From NCBI GenBank assembly GCA_951406725.2, contig OX597821.1, positions 15,004,001 through 15,068,000 on the forward strand: a DNA stretch of 64,000 nt, given 5' to 3'. Each line of letters opens with the position of its first letter. Position 1 is the first letter of the stretch. Source of the DNA: Octopus vulgaris. Taxonomy: Eukaryota. The notes under the pieces are model-generated. The model was not told the DNA's origin and searched no databases. It saw only the letters and a list, made by a program, of their open reading frames with translations. Of the stretch, positions 15,279 through 63,960 are shown in pieces. The position numbers were made by a program, and so were the translations under genes.

Positions 15279-16349
15279 GTTTACGAAACTCAGAGTAGCA
15301 TGGGTAGCCCGTTATACTCGGATCACATGCAGCTGTTTATGAATATTTGCAATGCTTGTGAAACATGATTATATGAATGGCATTTTTCAAAAATATCTTT
15401 AGCAAACTATAGTTTTTACACAGTTAAGTTGAAAAATTGTTACACATACTTCTCCCCCTCTCTCTTTCTCTCTGTATATATATATATATATATCTTTCTC
15501 TGCATATCTCTTCCTCTCTCCCTTCTCTCACCTACACTCCAATTCTCACTTGACCAATTTTTATGACATTCATAGTTGTAATACATATTGCAATGATGTA
15601 CTCTGTTAGCATATTGATTTAGCAGTGATGAGACTGATTTATAAAGAAAATTATTCCAAAAGGCCAGCTACAAAAATAATGTTACCCACTCGGCATACGG
15701 TACTTCCTGAAAACAAATACTTTTTACAATCGCACAGAAGTCGAATTTTCAAGATACATTAGTGTAAAGGTAGTCAAGTTTGAAAGATCGTCGGGACGGT
15801 GCTTCATATTAGCTTAGTAAAGATTATGCAATAATATGGTAAATGTAAAATATGCTGATGAAAATCATATTTCGAATAACAAACTACTTAGAGCATAAAT
15901 AAAACTTACAATGATGTTCACAAATTTTCTAGACTTACTTAATATCTACAAATAGATAGCAATAATTTGACAGTCCCAGGAAGAGCCCACTCTTGCAGCA
16001 AACACATTGATTGCATATCAAATTCATAGTAATAAACTACAGTAAAAATATAAGTACATAAAATGTTTATAAACGAAATAGTATATAGCAACAGAACTAT
16101 TTATAAAGAAACATTTTATAGATGACTGCATTATTAAAAAATACAGCCACACAAAGCAATAATGAAAGTTTACTGATTGTGTCTATTTCCTACGCCAAGG
16201 AAAGAAAATTTATGGGAAAAATGCTCTGGAGTATTGTATGAAATATTACTTTATGTCATTTTTACACCTTTGAAATATTTTATATCACAGCAAGTCATAT
16301 TTTATTTATGGGATTCAACCACACGCACAGATATACACATAATATATAT

Positions 16350-17075: not shown

Positions 17076-18337
<1,262 letters not shown>

Positions 18338-26760: not shown

Positions 26761-27042
26761 TGAAGTATATTTGCCTCCTAAATGTGGCTGACCCATATGG
26801 GACGATGATACTATAGCTTATAGTCCCAGGAAGACATGACATCTCCTCCACCTGGCTAACGACACACAATCTATGCCTGATCAGTATTTGCGAAGGAAAA
26901 TCATCGTTCCCACCTCTAGACTGACATGATACATACAGACCCGGGTTTCTGGATTATTCCATACTTTTTATACGGAACAAATTTATTATTCTTAGGCAAG
27001 AATGTTGTTGATAGTAACTTTGCAGTTTCACCCAGCTAAGCT

Positions 27043-27087
27043 ATCGTCTGATGATGACTAATCTTGGCGAAACTTCGAAGTCAATGT
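27043..27087 (+). ncRNA. Hammerhead motif (degenerate stems) within a fold-back repeat 26985-27112
   Basis: CTGATGA-tgactaatcttggc-GAAA-CTTCGAAG-TC; the left arm 26985-27035 is an imperfect reverse complement of 27063-27112. Confidence 0.55.
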
Positions 27088-28191
27088 CAACAACATTTTG
27101 TATAAGAATAATATATATGTGAGTGCGTGTACCTGCTCATGCACGCGTGTGTGGTACAGTGAATTTAGTTGGACGATACTTAAAATGCTTCACTTATTTA
27201 CTGACACACTATATATTAGCTTACATAAATTCCTGTTTTCTTAAGTTTTGATGTAAATATCTTATTGTAGAGTTGGCTTTCCAACTCCACCCCCATATCT
27301 TCCAGTGTCTCAAAGCTGATGAAGTACAGTCGTAAACGACCACCTCCCTTTCCTCTTCAGTAGATTTCAATTCTCTGTGATCAACAGCAGGTTTTTCTAC
27401 TTTTCTCCCTCATGAGTCATTTGTCTCTCCCCTTTAACTCTTCACGAAAGAAATGTTGTCTATGGCTGGAACTAGCAATTTGGAGCTCTGTTTCTCCTAT
27501 ATATTCTGTTTCTAATTGGTAGATCATGATGTTTTCTGTCAGACAAGGGAACTCAAGTTTGATGCATGATTATTACAGAAACGTATATTGCAGTCTTACA
27601 CTCTCCCTACACAGTGGCAATTTAAGACATGGTTATGCGATTTAGCCAAAACAAAATACACAATATGAAATAATGCTCATATATAATGCAATTAAATAGA
27701 TGATTCTGAGAAATTAATTCGAGAAGCAATATACAAGTAATTGTATTAATCATGACCCTTACGTAGATAATTTGATTTCAAGAATTTCAATACTTTTTAT
27801 ATATTCTTGAGCAGTCATTGAACAATAACCACACTTGGACACTGAATTGAAGGTTTTGTCGATCATATTGACTCTATGACTTACGTCAATATGATAATTA
27901 TTTTATTGATCACTGTTTATAGAGGAGCTACGTTATGAATAGATATAAAAAGACAGACACAAACGCATACATTTATGTACATATATTACAGGCTGATGTA
28001 CATTTTCTATCAAGTAAGTTATCAAGGTGCACCGCGGCACTCTAAAGCCGAGAATCTCGTAGTTGTGAGACGAATCACTCAACCAAAATGCTACACTTTC
28101 GACTTGATATGCTTCTATATAATGTAGATACCAATGAAACTTTTGCCTGTACCATAGGGATAACAACATCAGAAGCTAATATTCAGCAATA

Positions 28192-31825: not shown

Positions 31826-31912
31826 AATTTAGATTCAAATGAATATGGTACTTAACTTAGATGCACCAGAATTTTTTATGGTATTACCCATAAAATTATA
31901 TGGGGTGATTAT

Positions 31913-31985
31913 AACCCAAAAATAAGCAACAAGAATGGATCCGGTAATTTAAATTACTGGATCCATTATTGTTGCTTATTTTTGG

Positions 31986-31988
<3 letters not shown>
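31913..31988. repeat. Near-perfect spacerless palindrome in an insertion (31822-31990) inside (TA)n
   Basis: aacccaaaaataagcaacaagaatggatccggtaattt|aaattactggatccattattgttgcttatttttgggtt. Confidence 0.9.
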
Positions 31989-32016
<28 letters not shown>

Positions 32017-38635: not shown

Positions 38636-41600
38636 TATACATATATATATATATGTACACACACATATATATATATGTACACAAATATATATATATATAT
38701 ATATATATTCATATATGCATTTATATATATTATTAGTTAATAAGACATAAGTTATACACCTGTTAGTTTGCGGTGAAGTACGTTCACTGGCTCAGTATTC
38801 GTTTGGTATTTCATTAGTGAGAGAGACGCATGTTCAGTATTCCAACTGTGAGAGTTCGATGCTTGAAGTGTCGAAACAAACGTATATATTTATCCCTCTC
38901 TCTCATTCTCTCCTCTCTCTATCTGTCTATCGTCTTGAGGTTTACTCTGATGCAGCTATGTGTTAACTAACATGTGAACCACTGCGAGTGAAAGACCCCT
39001 AGCTTAATTTAGAAGAAAATCTGAAGCGTTGTTGGTCTCAGACGCTGTTGTGCCGCTGGTGTTATAGCTGACTGCGTTGAAAAAACCTTTTCAGTTCTGT
39101 GCAATACATTCTCCACTCAAACAGATTCAATCACAAGAATGTCGTTGACTACTCGAACATTTGCATGAATTTACTATGTTTAGACGTCACAAGTTGACTT
39201 CCAGCATGGATATATTTAGCTATGAGGTGTGTGTGCATGTGTGTGCGTGCATGTGTGTGTCTGTGTGTTTACGCGTACGTGTATGTATACGTTAATGTTA
39301 ATAATATGGAAAATATTAGAATTCGGTCAGTATCAGCAAGACTGGATTCGTCTTCATGAAAATGAGTGTGTACAGCACTCTCATTCAGTGTATCATTGAT
39401 TGTATATCCTTTGTGTTTGCATATACCCATCCATCCATCCAACCATTCAGCCGTCCATCCGACCGTCAATTCATTTCTGTACCCATCTATCCATGCATAC
39501 ATGTATACATACAAAATTTGCCAAAATTTCATTTCTTCTTGAGTAAACCGCATTTCCTCTACCGCTCGTCCATACACCAGCACTTTGTTTCTCATTATCG
39601 CTTCTAAATGTCTGGTCACAATCTTTGTCATATGACATTCTCAGATAATTGCAGTGGTATAGAATACATCAACATAAATTATGAAGAATAAATTAAATTA
39701 TAATGAAATAAAATAAATTAAATTAAAATGGGTTATTCATAAAGCGCTGAAAAATAAAGGAAGCAAACAATAAACTGACAGAAATAAGATAATCATTGGA
39801 GATTATAAGTTATTATGAAGGGATTCCGGATTCAACAGGGATTCAGGAACCAGCTGATCTGAAGATAAAATTATGTTGATAATAAAATTTATGTGTGGGT
39901 ATTTCTTTGATTTTATCACTTCAAATGATAGCAGTATGAGGTGATAAATGTGATAGTCTAGTGCAGTATTTATATTTCCACAAATGGATATTCACTATAA
40001 CAAGCAATTTAAATTACACAGCTAAAATACAATTCTTACACTACACTTCCATACGGCAGTTGTATATATTGGCATAACGAATTAGAGTACAATAAAGGTG
40101 AATTATACGAAACGTTAATATTTTATTGTCGTAACTGTAAATTGAAAACACCTACACTTCAGAGTTCATAATGATCTTACAAATGAAGAAACATCTAATT
40201 ATTTTATGTATGATATATCTAACTAGAATATCTTTCTTTTATCGGAAAAGCGTTGCAAGTTTTCTATTGATTAAAGTTGGGAAAAAATATTTTGTTCCTA
40301 ATTATAGTTTTGAAACCATGTTTGCACTAAAACCACCCACAAAGGAGATCTTTGGAGAGATAACTGAGTAGCTGATTCTATTTTTGTTCCCTGTTTCAAC
40401 TATCTATGTGACTAATTTTTCTAAATTTCTCAAGTGACCTTTGCAGAAATTGTAAAGAATCTCTTATCAGTTCAGTCGAAATTAAGAAATAAAGAAATAA
40501 ACCAAATCACCGAGGAAACAGAAATGGAACATTACCATTACTCTGTGTTATTCACGATACCATAAACAATAACAGAAAGACTGAAATTCCTAAAATTCTG
40601 AGTAAAAAACCTTAAAAAAAATAAACAAGAAATATGATAAGAAAGAAGAGCAAAAGCAAAACAAAACGAAACGAAATAAATCTTATCAAAGAAGAAAGAA
40701 ACAACTCCATATAATATTCCCTAGCAGGTTGTTTGTCTAGTGCATGTCTTCAGTTTATGAAAACGTTGGAAGATCTAAAGTTCTAAGACGATGATAACGT
40801 GCTTCAGACGATGTCGTAAATAGAATATGGCCTATGTATTTATTTTCCCAGGATTTTTCTAAACGTAAACAATTGTATTTATATTGTTGGTTGATGTGAT
40901 TGTTGTTTACGAATTTTAAGAAAATTATTGTATCGCTCCGTTACATAACGTCTCTGATATTATCATTGCTTATACTAAACATCTTCTGTGAACATCACGA
41001 ATTTAGCGTAAAAAACTTTGTCAAAATAAATACACAAAATAAAAGCAGCTTATTGACTACTATTGTATACGTAGTTGCAAATTTTACAAACACCTACATT
41101 TGATATTTAGACACAAATATAAGTCAAAAATCTTGTAGATCTGTTTTAGAGTTATGTTGCTTATAAAAACATTGCAATGCTATTTTTATAATTTCCTCGC
41201 AAAGAACTTGTATGTAATACTCTTCCGTTATTCTCTGTAAATTTGGTCTTACTAAGATTTTGATGCATCAAGATGCGACGAACAAAAGATAGAAAGAAAT
41301 TCAATGGTATCTAATAAAATTATTAATTATGGTCTACCTGCTGATTAATATTATGATGTCACCGTTGGTTATGTTGATTTGTCTATAAAAATATTTAAAA
41401 AATAAATTTTGGTAAATGATAATTGAAATAAAACAGCTGCTCAGTCAGATACCAGACGCCAATTTTGTGGAAAAGTGGACGAAAGAATTAATCAGTTGTT
41501 CAACGAATGTACTTGGCTTGCACAAAAAAAGAAGAGAAAACAAACATATAAATGCAGGTATGGTCGGTAAAAAGGTCTGGTAGGGTTTTATCCAATTTAG

Positions 41601-42953: not shown

Positions 42954-43012
42954 TATATTAACAGGCTACTAAGTTAACGTCCTGGATTTAAGCAAGAAGC
43001 GCTGACATTGTA

Positions 43013-43578
43013 TTGGGTTGTCCGGAAAGTTCGTGCCGATTTTTAAAGGAAAGGAAAAGGTCAGTAAATACTTGCCATTACATTTTTAATCAACCAAATA
43101 TGAACCATTTTCTTGTACAATGCGTCTCCATCTTTCTGTTAACTTGAAATTAACCTCTTCCCAGAATTGAGGTGGTTTCATGGCAAAAAATTCATCAAAG
43201 TATCTTTTTAGGTCATCCAAGGAACTGAAATTTTTATCATTAAGACTATTCTGCAGATACCTGAATAAGGGGAAATCCGAAAGAGCAATATCTGGTGAAT
43301 ATGGAGGGTGGGGTAACACATCCCAGCCGAGCTGCAGCAATTTTTGTCTGGTTGCCAAAGCATCAAGTGCCGAATATGAACTTTCTTATCTTCCATTTTA
43401 AAGGATTACAGAATTAACACAGCTTATAGGAACATAAACCTTGTTCCAAGAAAAGATAGCTTAAACTGAGTTCTGAATGGAGGTGTAGTCAAATCCTATT
43501 TTATGGAGTCAACCATGTTATAAAATAAGTCGAAAGGTAAGCTACTATAAATCGGCACGAACTTTCCGGACAACCTAA
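43013..43578 (-). mobile_element. Internally deleted mariner transposon (mellifera-like)
   Basis: ~30-bp TIRs ttgggttgtccggaaagttcgtgccgattt / aaatcggcacgaactttccggacaacctaa, TA TSD; N-terminus MEDKKVHIRHL joined to C-terminus LGWDVLPHPPYSPDIALSD. Confidence 0.95.
43086..43396 (-). pseudogene. Mariner transposase remnant
   Basis: HPPYSPDI motif and third catalytic D; HTH and first two catalytic residues deleted. Confidence 0.9.
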
Positions 43579-44162
43579 TACTAACGGTCCAATGCGGTCT
43601 TTTACATAGACGTGTATGTACACGGAACTCCTAAGTTCGTACATTTATTAATGAACACTATATACACATAAATATGTATATGCACGCGCGTGTGCATGCC
43701 CGTGCGTGCATGTGCGATGTCTGATTGCACGCGTGTGTGTGTGAGTGTGTGAATGTGTATGTATCTAATAATAAACATCTTATAGCATATAAACAAATTT
43801 ATGATAGCATCAATGTGTTTATGCTTTTCAGAAAATATATTGCTCCTGACTTCGGTTGCTGACGGTTGAAATAAGCCAGTCTGTGAAGTCTCGAGATACA
43901 TGAAGCAATCGACTGCCGATTGCTCACTCAGCTACCGAAGACATTGCGATTCAATCACGGATTATGTTTTCACAGCGAGAATAAATGTTTCTATTAAACA
44001 TAATATGCACGCACACACATACACATACATGGACATAACCACACACACGCATAGAGACACATACAAGCAGACACAGACACACACATACACAACGATTTCT
44101 AAATATATTCTACGTTTGTAATGTTTATGTAATACATACACACACATACCAACATATACATA

Positions 44163-48140: not shown

Positions 48141-49306
48141 CGAGGGTGGGCTAAAATGTTAATTGACGGAATATTCGAAGGATTGATGGTAGAGCTGCCA
48201 AATTTTGCATGCATTAACTTCAACTCTCCTTAGTAATAAACAGCATTATTTCTTTGCAGGTAAACTCACATCAAAAGTAACTAGTAGCTACTAGTCTTTG
48301 AAATAGACAAAATTTGGCATCCTGGTGCTATCAAGTGCCTGCAGAAAAAGGGTTTAGCTCCCAAGGCCATTCATGCTAACATGGTTGCTACATTAGGGGA
48401 TGGCGCACCAGCTTTATTAACAGTGTAAAAGGGGGGAAGCTGAATTTAGAAGAAGGAAGAGTCTTGAGGTTTACCTAAGGTCTGGACATTCTACAACTGC
48501 TACTACCGATGATGCAAGGCAGGCGATTGACCTTAAATCAAGTAGCCAATGCTATTAACATAGTCCATGAAAGTGTTGAGAATATTCTGGACAATGGACT
48601 TGGCAGGTTTCTCCTGGGTACTATCTCCTCTTACATCTGCTGAAAACCACAGGCCGATAACATCACGGGAAAATCTGACGTTGTTGAGGCAGATCCAGTT
48701 GGTTTCCTTGATAGTTTCCTAAGCCAAGATGAATGTTTGGTTCATCACTTTAAGCCAGAGACAAAGAGACAATGCATGCAACGAAAACACCCCACCTCAC
48801 TTCCTCCAAAGGAGGCCAAGGTCGCTTCATCTGCAGGGAAGGTGATGACCTCAGTTTTGGGGGATGCAAAAGGCGTTGTATTTCTTGACTATCTTCAAAA
48901 GTGTCATGCAATCAATAGATAGTAATATGCCCACCTGCTGAGGTAGTTACGAAAAGCGATCAAGTCCAAACTCCCGGGAAAACTGTAAAAGGGCACTTCT
49001 TTCATGAGGAAAATTCTCCAGTACACAAACCGTTTGCTTCAATGGCTGCTGTGCTTGACTATGGCTTTGAACCTATCGTGTGTTCTTCAACACGGAAAAA
49101 CTTGTTCTGGGAACCAGTATTGCAGTGATGATAATGTCATATCTGCTGTTGATGACTTTTTACCAACAGGATGAAAGCTTCTTTACTAATGAAATCCAGC
49201 ACCAATGGAAGTAGTGTGTCGACTGCAAAAGGGAATATGTTAATAAATAACCTCATTTGGTCATATCCCATGTATGTTAGCCATTGAGCTTTTCAACCGT
49301 CCCTTG
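48141..49306 (+). mobile_element. Near full-length decayed mariner (irritans-like) with transposase pseudogene ~48300-49250
   Basis: TA-cgagggtgggctaaaatgtt ... agcttttcaaccgtcccttg-TA; translations DKIWHPGAIKCLQKKGLAPKAIHANMVATLGDGAP, QDECLVHHFKPETKRQ, SAGKVMTSVLGDAKGVVFLDYLQK; many stops and frameshifts. Confidence 0.92.
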
Positions 49307-49706: not shown

Positions 49707-49943
49707 AAGGCGGCGAGTTGGCAGAAACGTTAACACGCTGGGGGAAATGCTTAGCGATATTTCGTCTGCCGTTACGTTCTCAGTTCAAATTTCGCCGAGG
49801 TCGACTTTGCCTTTCATCCTTTCGGGGTCGATAAATTAAGTACCTGTTACGCACTGTGCTCGATGTAATCGACTTAATCCCTTTGTCTGTCCTTGTTTGT
49901 CCCCTCTATGTTTAGCCTCTTGTAGGCAAAAAAAAAAGAAAGA
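49707..49943 (+). mobile_element. SINE-B, full length
   Basis: Matches 41990-42217; 14-bp TSD agaatagcaaacgg (49686-49699 / 49944-49957). Confidence 0.92.
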
Positions 49944-50444
49944 AGAATAGCAAACGGAAAAATATTTTATAGGTATATATTTTCTATTGAATCTAAACCG
50001 TATATTGTCTGATTATTCTTTCGATAAACAGAGATTGCTGAGATCAAAGTCCAACTGCAAATCAGAATCTAGGTAGAGATTGGTAGAGAAACTCTATTGG
50101 TGATATTGCCTTGGATGGCTCATAAACAGAGTGAGTCATGGGTTTAATAATCTAAACTAAATCAAATGCATATATGGCAATTTAAAATAATCCATCCGTT
50201 TTGTTCACCAATAACTCCAGGGAGGTTCGGTGGGGTTGGATCCTCAGGCGCTTTTACTATAGGAGCGTCATATCAGAACATAGCACCGTCCTATAAGAAG
50301 CAACTATCATTACGCTTTCCGGATGGATTACTAAAGGTGACCAATTGAGACTAAGAATATTATCCAGCAAAACGCCACAATAAAGAACGATAATTTCCAG
50401 CTGCATTTTCTTAATACATCGAATATTGTTTCATATAAAACAAA

Positions 50445-51011
50445 TCGAACAGATCGAACCTAACTTATTTTTTTAAAGCCTAGTACTTGGTCTATCGGCC
50501 TCTTAAGTCGCACCGCTATGTTACGGGAACATAAATACACCAGCACCGTTTGTCACGTGGTGGTGAAGGGACAAACACAGCCACAAAGACACACACAAAT
50601 ACATGTCTACATATCTGCGACGGGATTCTTTCAGTTTTCGTCTACCATTTCTACTCACAAAGCTTCTGTAGGCCAGAGGCATCTGCCCGAGGTGCCATGC
50701 AGTAGGAGTGAATCCGAAAGCATGTGGTTGGGAAGCAAGCTTCTTATTTCTTTATTGCCCACGGGGGGCTAAACATAGAGGGGACAAACAAGGACAGACA
50801 AAGGGATTAAGTCGATCACATCGACCCCAGTGCGTAACTGCTACTTAATTTATCGACCACGAAAGGATGAAAGGCAAAGTCGACCTCGGCGGAATTTGAA
50901 CTCAGAACGTAGCGGTAGACGAAATACCGCTAAGCATTTCGCCCGGCGTGCTAAAGTTTCTTCCAACTCACTGTTGTGTGGTAAGAAGCTCCGCCGGCTT
51001 CTTAACACACA
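50445..51011 (-). mobile_element. Old SINE-D with SINE-B (50746-50972) nested in its tRNA head
   Basis: SINE-D body 50445-50745, head resumes at ~50997 (gcttcttaacacaca); gcttctta is duplicated around the insert. Confidence 0.8.
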
Positions 51012-53025: not shown

Positions 53026-53420
53026 TCTTTATATATAAAAGTGAAGTTGTGTGTCTGTCTCCTACGATTTAGATTCCTAACTACTCCCACATTTTGCGGT
53101 GCAGTTTAACCGAAACCGGGTATCAAATATTCGTGATTCATATCGAGCCCTTCTGGGTATTAGCGCGCGTCTACGATGAGTCTACGATTTAAAAAAAAAA
53201 TTACCAGCATTTTTTCCATTTTAATGCATTTTTTCGCTATTATATAAGGGAAGTAACTCTCTAAAAATGTCTACGATGAGTCAACGATTAAAAAAAAATT
53301 ATCATCATTTGTTTTCCATTTTTAATGCATGTTTTTGCTATTTTTTGGCTATAACTCTCTAAAAATGCTTATATAGTTATTTCCCTTACAAACCCAAGCA
53401 ACGCCGGGCGATACTGCTAG
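53026..53420 (+). mobile_element. Non-autonomous Helitron
   Basis: A|TC start, subterminal hairpin ccc..gcaacgccgggcg, CTAG|T end, no TSD, internal ~100-bp tandem duplication (53170-53368); second copy at 59290-59694. Confidence 0.9.
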
Positions 53421-53896: not shown

Positions 53897-54028
53897 TCGC
53901 CCATGGTCGACTTTGCATTTCATAATTTCGGGGTTGATAACATAAGTAGCAGTTAAACACTGGGGGTCGATGTAATCGGTTTAGTCACTCCACGAAATTG
54001 GTGGCTTTGTGCGAAAATTTGAAACCGA
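53897..54028 (+). mobile_element. 5'-truncated SINE-B
   Basis: ggtcgactttgcatttcataatttcggggttgataa...ctgggggtcgatgtaatcg. Confidence 0.7.
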
Positions 54029-54102
54029 TATTATTGTCTACTGATGGATAGCTCAGATTAAGCTCATTGTTGGCAGGGGATTATACGGCTGTAAACTTCC
54101 AA

Positions 54103-54217
54103 TTATATTTTTCATTTATTAAATTATTTATAGCTACATAATCCAATATCTGACAAAAGCCATAATTTGGGGAACACTTTTACAGCGAAGTGTACAAACA
54201 TACTTCACCGCAATACA

Positions 54218-54310
<93 letters not shown>

Positions 54311-54496
54311 GCTTTATTTAAAGCAGCAGAAAATTCAACAAAACCTGTTATTCTGTGTTTCGCTGTAAAAGTGTTCCCCAAATTATGGCTTTTGTCAGAT
54401 ATTGGATTATGTAGCTATAAATAATTTAATAAATGAAAAATATAAACTCAGAGTAACAGGTTTTGTTGAATTTTCTGCTGCTTTAAATAAAGCATA
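54103..54496. repeat. Interlocked inverted repeats (54103-54189 / 54359-54445 and 54308-54360 / 54443-54496)
   Basis: The first pair is an essentially exact reverse complement; the second pair is the end of an element continuing to ~54562 with HHR remnant aaactcagagtaacagg. Confidence 0.88.
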
Positions 54497-54579
54497 TTAC
54501 TCTACCACTGGTATTTGAGTACTCTTTTTTCCACCTTGTTTCACATTTATGTGTTTACTCCGGTATATATATATATATA

Positions 54580-55045
54580 TGAAAAAACAAGTCAAGATAG
54601 AAAATGCTAAAATAATTTTATAAAGAACATTTCAGTACCGGTTTCGGTCAGTTTGAGACCTTTTCAACTGTAACGATTAAATAATTAAATTTAGAAAAAT
54701 TAAAAGAAAAGTTTTTTTAAAGGAATATTTGTATAGTGTTCAAATATAAGTGGCATTCTGCCTTTCTTTGTCTCCCTTGTTTGCACTTGTGTGTTCGAGG
54801 TCGTTTTGAATTCTTGGTAGGGTAGAAGAAGAAGAAGGTCGATGAGGAGAGGGGGTGGAAAAATTTGGGAGTGCTTTGATTGTCGTATTTTGAATGGTCA
54901 GTGACGGCTAGCAGTTGCAGTTCAATTCAGGAGAATATTTCTATTGAAAGGTTTGTTTATGAAATTTGCGTAGGTGTTATACTAAAAAGCATTAGTGAGT
55001 TAAGAGGTAGAAGGTTTTTTCATATATATCAACTCGTGTGTTCCT
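54580..55045 (-). mobile_element. Penelope-like 3' fragment between (TA)n tracts
   Basis: Contains the HHR at 54633-54670; pyrimidine-rich minus strand; weak ILLN..ASRH.PF resemblance to PLE ORF ends. Confidence 0.5.
54633..54670 (-). ncRNA. Minimal hammerhead ribozyme with U3-A8 compensatory core
   Basis: cag-TTGAAAA-ggtc-tcaaact-gacc-GAAA-CCGG-TA-ctg. Confidence 0.68.
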
Positions 55046-55124: not shown

Positions 55125-55131
55125 ATGTATA

Positions 55132-55573
55132 GGCGCAGGAGTGGCTGTTATAGGCGCAGGAGTGGCTGTTTGGTAAGTAGCTTGCTAACCAACCACATGG
55201 TTCCGGGTTCAGTCCCACTGCGTGGCATCTTGGGCACGTGTCTTCTGCTATAGCCCCGGGCCGACCAATGCCTTGTGAGTAGATTTGGTAGACGGAAACT
55301 GAAAGAAGCCTGTCGTATATATGTATATATATATATATATAAGTGTGTGTGAATATGTTTGTGTGTCTGTGTTTGTTCCCCTAGCATTGCTTGACAACCG
55401 ATGCTGGTGTGTTTACGTCCCCGTCACTTAGCGGTTCGGCAAAAGAGACCGATAGAATAAGTACTGGGCTTACAAAGAATAAGTCCCGGGGTCGATTTGC
55501 TCGACTAAAGGCGGTGCTCCAGCATGGCCGCAGTCAAATAACTGAAACAAGTAAAAAGAGAAAAAAGAAAAGA
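55132..55573 (+). mobile_element. SINE-D, full length, with duplicated 21-nt head
   Basis: ggcgcaggagtggctgtt twice (55132, 55153); body matches 42547-42953. Confidence 0.92.
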
Positions 55574-58369: not shown

Positions 58370-58423
<54 letters not shown>

Positions 58424-58424
58424 T

Positions 58425-58548
58425 TATAAAATGAGATAGGGGTTGAAAATTCAACCCACCATGGGATAACATATATCCAATATACTGCTAGATAGGTACC
58501 TTTTATTGTTTTATTGATTTAAGTATGTTTCTCCATTTTCTAATTTTG

Positions 58549-58552
<4 letters not shown>
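58425..58552. mobile_element. Head-to-head fragments of the same family as 17436-18337, inside (TA)n
   Basis: 58425-58487 is the reverse complement of ~18277-18337; 58513-58552 matches ~18128-18168 in direct orientation. Confidence 0.75.
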
Positions 58553-58595
<43 letters not shown>

Positions 58596-58599
<4 letters not shown>

Positions 58600-58822
58600 C
58601 TGTAAATGTAATATGTGTCAATTATTCGGTAGCCATGATAAAACTCTGAGTTTCGGATGCCGAAGTGGAAATCCACCCCGCCATCTCTTCAGTTATCCGA
58701 CCACCGGAAAAAATGCTATGAAAAATGATCGTTATACGGCGTAGATTTCCACCTCGGCATCCTAAACTCGGAGTTTTATCATAGCTACTGAATAATTGTC
58801 ACATATTACATTTACAAATATA
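58596..58822. mobile_element. Fold-back insertion (~80-bp arms 58596-58678 / 58742-58822) inside (TA)n
   Basis: Arms are reverse-complementary; contains the HHR at 58637-58697. Confidence 0.82.
58637..58697 (-). ncRNA. Type-I hammerhead ribozyme motif
   Basis: gataa-CTGAAGA-gatggcggggtgg-attt-ccacttcggcatcc-GAAA-CTC-a-GAG-TT-ttatc. Confidence 0.75.
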
Positions 58823-58977
58823 TATAATGTATATATATATATGTATATATATAATACATATATACATGTATAGTATGTATATATATATATATATATATGT
58901 ATTATATTCGGAGTACAATCTAATTGCGTAGATGGTTAGTCCTGGTTAGGACGATGTAACTACCTTTTTTAACCTCA

Positions 58978-63441: not shown

Positions 63442-63443
<2 letters not shown>

Positions 63444-63960
63444 CTTATAAGAAAGGGCTAAAGAAGATATTTCTAAAGCCAATATATATCCACTTATAAT
63501 CCACTTGCTACAGGAAAAATTGAACTGAAAATCGGGCAACTAACCTTTAGCAAATTTAAATTTCGTTATCTCTATATTGAATCAATTTCGGAATTAATCC
63601 TATAAAGGATACATTCTTCGTCAGTAGAGCTTACAAGGGAATATAAATAAAATACTCACATGCGTTTATGGAAAAAGCAGAAGCTAAAAACATAACTACA
63701 TTTAAGTACATCATTTATATCTAAAAATAAACATTCCTTGGTCAGTCTCAGAACAACCTGTTGACTTTTCGCCGCTACATCTTGTAATGGTTACCAGTCC
63801 CCTGTAAGCAAGCAGTAATGAGTTTACTACTAACAAATATAGGATGAAGCCCCTTAGTTGCCCGATTTTCAGTTCAATTTTTCCTGTAGAAAGTGGATTA
63901 TAAGTGGATAATCAGTATATTGGCTTTAGAAATATCTTCTTTAGCCCATTCTTCTAAGAT
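63442..63960. mobile_element. Fold-back insertion: ~100-bp inverted arms (63442-63542 / 63853-63960) with an HHR in the spacer
   Basis: atcttataagaaagggctaaagaagatatttctaaagccaat...atcgggcaactaa versus its reverse complement; abuts (TA)n on the left. Confidence 0.82.
63570..63629 (-). ncRNA. Type-I hammerhead ribozyme motif
   Basis: ctcta-CTGACGA-agaat-gtatcctttataggatta-attcc-GAAA-TTGA-t-TCAA-TA-tagag. Confidence 0.75.

Follow-up and report, generated by a model that had tools for sequence, protein, structure and literature searches.

How did the centre of a short fold-back insertion in the genome of Octopus vulgaris come to hold an inverted copy of the DNA that lies beside it? The window analysed here, a 64,000-nucleotide stretch of contig OX597821.1, is AT-rich, laden with microsatellites, and free of N. 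It contains a 256-nt insert with (TA)n on both sides, a fold-back whose centre consists of left-flank sequence, copied exactly and in inverted orientation. There is good support for insertion templated by this local flank, because the exact copy is accompanied by microhomology at both junctions and the patch lies outside the 5′ half of the hammerhead at which the arms of the insert begin.

Structure of the insertion and its junctions

The features of the locus, with positions in the window, are:

54103–54189, plus strand: template of the patch, in flank DNA
54103–54104, plus strand: TT, 2-nt microhomology at the left end of the template, which pairs with AA at 54444–54445 and is the overlap of the two inverted repeats
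54186–54189, plus strand: CGAA, 4-nt microhomology at the right end of the template
54190–54212, no strand: 23 nt of flank left uncopied, which form a weak hairpin with the last bases of the template (−3.0 and −4.9 kcal/mol, z −1.3 and −2.0, for the two strands)
54213–54307, no strand: left part of the target, (TACA)n(TA)n, with the alternation broken at 54307
54308–54362, minus strand: left arm, an inverted truncated element copy that starts at the hammerhead CGAAAC (54362–54357); its CG is assigned to the element from two other GAAACTCAGAG copies
54363–54443, minus strand: net templated patch of 81 nt (87 nt with junction overlaps, 54359–54445)
54444–54496, plus strand: right arm, a sense copy of the element from AAAC, delimited by alignment of the arms
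54444–54455, plus strand: minimal hammerhead 3′ half, with part of GAAA, the palindromic stem III (54446–54454) and the GTA triplet (54453–54455)
54486–54491, plus strand: AATAAA hexamer, putatively functional, mirrored at 54313–54318
54497–54563, plus strand: tail of 67 nt, without a counterpart at the left end; a stem-loop lies around 54497–54523
54564–54580, no strand: right part of the target, (TA)n

Positions 54359–54445 are reverse-complementary to the template at 87 of 87 positions, and the two segments are 169 nt apart. The pair has a BLAST E-value of about 1e-39 against the masked window, and alignment of the patch to the flanks scored 166, compared with at most 32 in 30 shuffles. The best other match of the template in the window scored 46, within the range of 40–53 obtained from eight shuffles, and thus the inverted copy is the sole relative of the template in the window. 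The template ends 23 nt from the microsatellite and 118 nt from the element. The 23-nt gap has a 12-nt match at 38769–38780 in the window, which does not extend further. The 87 nt contain the junction overlaps; the strict arm-to-arm spacer is 83 nt long (54361–54443), or 81 nt if the CG at 54361–54362 is counted as element. The original prediction, that the spacer is an inverted copy of sequence about 170 bp upstream and arose by templated insertion, agrees with these data. It had also placed a hammerhead remnant at the start of one arm and the end of the insert at 54562; the remnant was found again, at the start of both arms, and the insert ends one nucleotide later, with (TA)n from 54564.

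The two arms (54308–54360 and 54444–54496) are identical at 51 of 53 positions. Both differences, at 54351 and 54356, are carried by the left arm and lie at most 12 nt from the joint (p = 0.048). The outer 43 nt are identical, which suggests a young insertion that has had scant opportunity for a second event. With 2/53 differences between the arms and 0/87 in the patch, there is a hint of a younger patch (Fisher p = 0.14). The distribution of differences fits either an insertion that is young and suffered damage at its ends or a patch of slightly later date. The two differing positions fall inside stem III beside the joint, where they break the palindrome, and may represent damage or errors at an exposed end. 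Folding of the RNA of arm plus tail gave no unusual structure (z −0.6).

The junctions differ in the length of their microhomology. The left arm ends in TTCG, which complements the CGAA at the end of the template. This is the CGAA nearest to the inner end of the left arm: the motif occurs at 53993, 54012, and 54186 within 53900–54307, and is absent from 54190–54358. At the right junction the overlap is 2 nt, as the right arm starts from AAAC, shares only AA with the patch, and lacks the CG. Two nucleotides of the 4-nt primer repeat are seen at the locus, and the other two are taken from the hammerhead consensus. A C precedes the motif in both other GAAACTCAGAG copies, which were found by a search that left the preceding base free. 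It is also present in three other displayed fold-back cores, which provide weaker support because they were chosen by eye or by a pattern that requires the C. CG stands before AA in 17 of the 825 cases counted locally and in 342 of the 12209 counted across the window, that is, 2–3%. Since a chance CG at the left arm is this rare and the right arm lacks one, it is likely that two separate 3′ ends, each antisense to the element and so of cDNA polarity, met at the centre of the fold-back. We infer that a top strand ending in TTCG once existed by itself. Folding was considered as the reason for the choice of 54186 and rejected: forced pairing costs 5.9 kcal/mol there and 5.1 and 6.7 kcal/mol at two farther sites, over which 54186 has no advantage. 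The order of the switch points, 54103, 54189, 54362, and 54444, is of the type 3-2-1-4.

Hammerhead remnant, element identity, and neighbouring fold-backs

Both arms halt at the hammerhead GAAA. The right arm begins with AAACTCAGAGTA, and the remnant at 54444–54455 lacks the 5′ core and stem II. The first 11–12 nt of the right arm recur at 15286–15297 and 58644–58654, the latter within a complete type I topology (58642–58692, minus strand). Two complete type I hammerhead topologies are present in the window, and none in 10 block shuffles of it. No Rfam family matched at its gathering score. At E-value thresholds, the 150 of 360 whole-window matches that were listed consisted of hairpin and microsatellite noise, and no Rfam hammerhead was detected in three small regions. 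The minimal hammerheads of Penelope elements were defined by a relaxed descriptor (PMC4209133). An isolated CGAAACTCAGAGTA at 15284–15297 directly follows (AG)n and has neither an inverted partner nor matching downstream sequence.

Only the first 12 nt of 54446–54562 recur in the window, and beyond these the arm family has no further copy there. Searches for an exact 20-nt element motif in prokaryotic genomes gave no match, and no element match was found in phages. Two weak, AT-rich matches to Borrelia plasmids (74.5% identity, 20% cover, E-value 3e-3) were taken as chance. Two element motifs are absent from the supplement of PMC8557442. Beyond the hammerhead motif, homology of the arm and tail to the other fold-backs was unconvincing among the six targets compared: the best alignment was AT-rich and misregistered, and its score was reached by 7 of 500 shuffles. 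The 27 of 106 open reading frames that were scanned contained no match to reverse transcriptase (RT) or GIY-YIG families, and a transposase fragment in one of the 27 was the only Pfam match; most of the remaining reading frames lie in microsatellites. The absence of such a reading frame is expected, because the copy is truncated and an insert of 256 nt is too short to hold one. Traits typical of Penelope-like elements are present in the form of an inverted truncated head-to-head copy, a one-ended tail, and a microsatellite, AT-rich target. The insert thus looks like the end of a Penelope-like element, a pLTR fragment. This assignment is structural, because the scanned reading frames hold no RT or GIY-YIG fragment and the window no second copy of the arm family.

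The original prediction had proposed a survey of other fold-back spacers for local templates. Six short fold-backs were aligned, and five of them could be searched, as one spacer of 6 nt was too short. A locally templated spacer was found in one of the five; the other four matched their flanks at shuffle level, and their centres contain hammerhead parts. The larger inverted pairs at 43010–43581 and 49715–50969 were excluded from the survey, the first being classed as a terminal-inverted-repeat element and the second as two copies of a dispersed repeat.

The fold-back at 17432–18166, beside (AT)n, has arms of about 360 nt (345 of 364 alignment columns identical) and a 12-nt spacer; judged by eye, a stem II longer than 100 nt seems to be closed by a hammerhead-like GAAAC that lies at about 17903 and has a palindromic stem III. 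The fold-back at 58585–58834 lies in (TA)n, contains the GAAACTCAGAG motif and the type I topology at 58642–58692, and its arms share their 3′ end. At 63442–63960, arms of about 105 nt enclose a 310-nt spacer with a complete type I topology (63575–63624, minus strand). An older fold-back at 26977–27120 (47 of 59 columns identical) has a hammerhead core motif at its centre (27048–27073). A small palindrome at 31910–31991, with 38-nt arms and a 6-nt spacer, adjoins (TA)n, and no hammerhead motif was seen in it.

Other repeats of the window include an element with 36-nt terminal inverted repeats (43010–43581) and a piece of a reading frame (48644–48919) that matches Pfam Transposase_1 with an E-value of 2e-8; we take both to be mariner-like. 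Two inverted 231-nt copies of a dispersed repeat with many relatives in the window (89.6% identity) flank another dispersed repeat at 49715–50969. A degenerate tandem pair with a period of about 100 nt is located at 53169–53367, and an exact 21-nt tandem duplication at 55128–55169 starts a SINE-like repeat after (TA)n. The 130-nt insert between two (AT)n tracts at 58421–58551 is possibly another element tail; over 27 nt, its end is 89% identical to the outer ends of the fold-back at 17432–18166.

Origin of the patch

The explanation that we put first, with evenly balanced confidence, is that two-ended priming by a Penelope-like element together with theta-type end-joining wrote the patch during integration. 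Both DNA ends at (TA)n would have been extended on the element RNA across an uncleaved hammerhead, the right end primed from the tail end at 54563 and the left from an internal site at 54496. The two extensions would have stopped at most 2 nt apart at GAAA, the foot of stem II. Such ends of identical sequence would be unable to anneal, and one of them would have been extended on the flank. In the simplest version, the left end TTCG would loop back to pair with the closest CGAA in its own strand and copy about 83 nt leftwards; once released, it would join the right end through AA/TT. The reverse order would yield the same product, with 2 nt used by the right end to invade the flank and 4 nt used for the joining. 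A theta-type enzyme is the probable polymerase and host repair the probable source of the copying, although the reverse transcriptase itself may have been the copying polymerase.

Several known activities are compatible with these steps. A purified Penelope-like protein cut and extended both strands in vitro, used RNA with an uncleaved hammerhead, and set its tail by two internal start sites (PMC11167929). This behaviour matches the arms described here, whose starts are 67 nt apart and each of which extends across the GTA triplet. Hallmarks of Penelope-like elements include truncated copies placed head to head, a tail on one side only, and insertion into (TA)n (PMC8557442, PMC3846280). Snap-back synthesis produces same-side inverted copies with primer repeats of 3–4 nt (PMC5728401), and polymerase theta can snap back from two paired bases (PMC11292364). 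At the locus itself, a patch written during integration is favoured by the position of the template on the same side, its uniqueness in the window, the identity of the patch at all 87 positions, and the GAAAC of the left arm, which begins where the template ends in CGAA. Counting against it, there is one event only, the argument from CG is built on an inferred element consensus and not on true family copies, and no element protein ties the arms to the Penelope family. The loop of 169 nt and the patch of 81–83 nt are far longer than in usual theta snap-backs, and the template lies outside the 15 bp usual for templated insertions of L1. Folding gives no preference for 54186, the CGAA of which is in a weak hairpin. 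In addition, although the left arm ends at an ATAT that occurs just once in the examined 119 nt of the element, its match is broken by 54307.

The same sequence and strand polarity are predicted if the fold-back came first and lost its original spacer later, when a break at the hairpin or cruciform centre or a 3-2-1-4 switch of a replication fork allowed host synthesis to write the patch. The absence of differences from the patch points in this direction, since 0/87 has a chance of 0.035 at the rate of the arms; the direct comparison with 2/53 gives p = 0.14. In apes, type 3-2-1-4 is one of the two most frequent switch patterns and copies up to 128 nt (PMC7954356), and TA tracts are cruciform-prone break sites repaired by theta-mediated end-joining (MMEJ; PMC13645644). 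However, two events would be needed in a young insertion, the position of both arm differences next to the joint suggests damage of an end rather than age, and the much longer palindrome at 17432–18166, with its 12-nt spacer, persists without such a scar. We consider a later origin somewhat unlikely. Alternatively, a single cDNA could account for the whole structure: after synthesis from the tail up to AAAC it would have changed template to the flank for 87 nt, then folded back and primed on itself, with the left arm as the resulting second strand, before joining the left (TA)n. In R2 insertions the cDNA ends prime on the cDNA and, in fewer cases, on target DNA close by (PMC11371274); a proposal for the head-to-head repeats of Penelope invokes self-priming (PMC3846280), and matches of 2 nt would suffice for both switches. 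This course of events is quite unlikely: it requires three junction events on one strand and leaves the CG match to chance (2–3%), since AAAC is where the retained cDNA stops.

A sequencing chimera or misassembly would agree with the identity of 100%, and polishing can homogenise near repeats. A simple mirror artefact nevertheless predicts different flanks on both sides, and the right arm is followed by a 67-nt tail for which the left side offers no template. The window has no N and spans microsatellites of up to 1.6 kb, and we regard an artefact as very improbable. Even less credible is an origin of the 87 nt in the element itself or in some other repeat, with the outer copy as a separate insertion. 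Penelope elements can hold captured host spacers (PMC3846280), but the spacer here lacks a CTGANGA core and has T at 54443 in place of the invariant G of GAAA. Two identical copies lie 169 nt apart with no third in the window, and the four other searched spacers match no local flank and hold hammerhead parts at the element's own 5′ position.

The formation of the patch at integration, to which we return, bears on the remaining statements of the original prediction. The overlap of CGAA with TTCG and the lack of CG in the right arm speak for end-joining of two cDNA ends, as it had proposed, although a later break or switch gives the same sequence. The accompanying model, in which such elements patch breaks, receives no support: nothing in the sequence points to the patching of a break that was already there, and a Penelope-like protein itself cuts and extends both strands in vitro (PMC11167929). 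The claim that the elements duplicate local sequence holds for one event, in one of the five searchable spacers, and was overstated, because this event is single and the copying was probably done by host repair. As a tentative generalisation, which we doubt somewhat more than we believe, Penelope-type head-to-head fold-backs may consist of two cDNAs from both ends of a cut (TA)n, stalled at the hammerhead and stitched by theta-type synthesis, with rare flank patches recording the free 3′ ends.

Comparison with known systems

The insert resembles the inverted 5′-truncated pLTRs of endonuclease-bearing Penelope elements in its head-to-head copy, one-ended tail, and (TA)n target (PMC8557442, PMC3846280), and in the presence of a hammerhead at the pLTR (PMC4209133). 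It differs from them in that it holds no reading frame, its tail is 67 nt long rather than 30–40 nt (PMC8557442), and the 5′ half of the hammerhead is missing from both arms, with local flank in its place. The host DNA captured by Pen1_Av is a spacer of 0.9–1.5 kb and not a copy of the target flank as here (PMC3846280). The origin of Penelope-like inverted ends is still called undefined in PMC8557442, and self-priming on an antisense template has been proposed for them (PMC3846280). No target-flank patch within a Penelope fold-back was found in the literature searched, which included few subscription papers; the accessible parts of PMC13580325, PMC13282606, and a retrozyme preprint contain nothing on such patches. 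A patch with asymmetric microhomology holds information about strands that a plain palindrome lacks, and one example proves little. If the proposed origin is true, flank patches collected genome-wide would decide between two-ended priming and the published self-priming for inverted pLTRs. The main value of the locus is this cheap genome-wide test of how inverted pLTRs form.

Both L1 and R2 are known to acquire locally templated insertions at their junctions, and the patch is therefore neat rather than surprising to a specialist. In L1, genomic DNA from less than 250 bp away was copied in at 22 of 3,598 insertions, usually from within 15 bp of the insertion site (bioRxiv 10.1101/2024.08.27.596794), and three cases are described in PMC11702581. 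As in L1 templated insertions and twin priming, nearby DNA is copied in and an inversion results from two primed ends joined by microhomology. Unlike in these, the retroelement is of a different class, and the arms overlap fully (53 nt), whereas the median internal duplication of L1 is 22 bp. With the same 53 nt in both arms, no poly(A), and a target duplication that is unresolvable in (TA)n, the insert departs from the twin-priming pattern. The snap-back 5′ junctions of R2 are similar in that priming from the 3′ end of a cDNA, either on the cDNA or on target DNA close by, generates an opposite-strand copy; R2, however, uses one cDNA and a fixed rDNA site, whereas two ends of cDNA polarity probably took part here (PMC11371274).

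Four-point template switches of the type 3-2-1-4 have the same order of switch points and are compatible with a switch within one strand. The 87 nt copied here are below their maximum of 128 nt and above their median of 12 nt, and the event lies exactly at a retroelement junction (PMC7954356). The SD-MMEJ pathway of polymerase theta shares with the locus the same-side inverted copy, the short primer repeat (4 nt), and the short resolving microhomology (2 nt) (PMC5728401, PMC11292364). The primer repeats of theta snap-backs are mostly less than 10 nt and up to about 25 nt apart (PMC5728401), and their templated inserts measure 3–30 bp (PMC11292364), in contrast to the 169-nt loop and the patch of 81–83 nt. 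Since both lengths exceed the usual range of theta snap-backs, the event works like the SD-MMEJ class without being a typical member of it.
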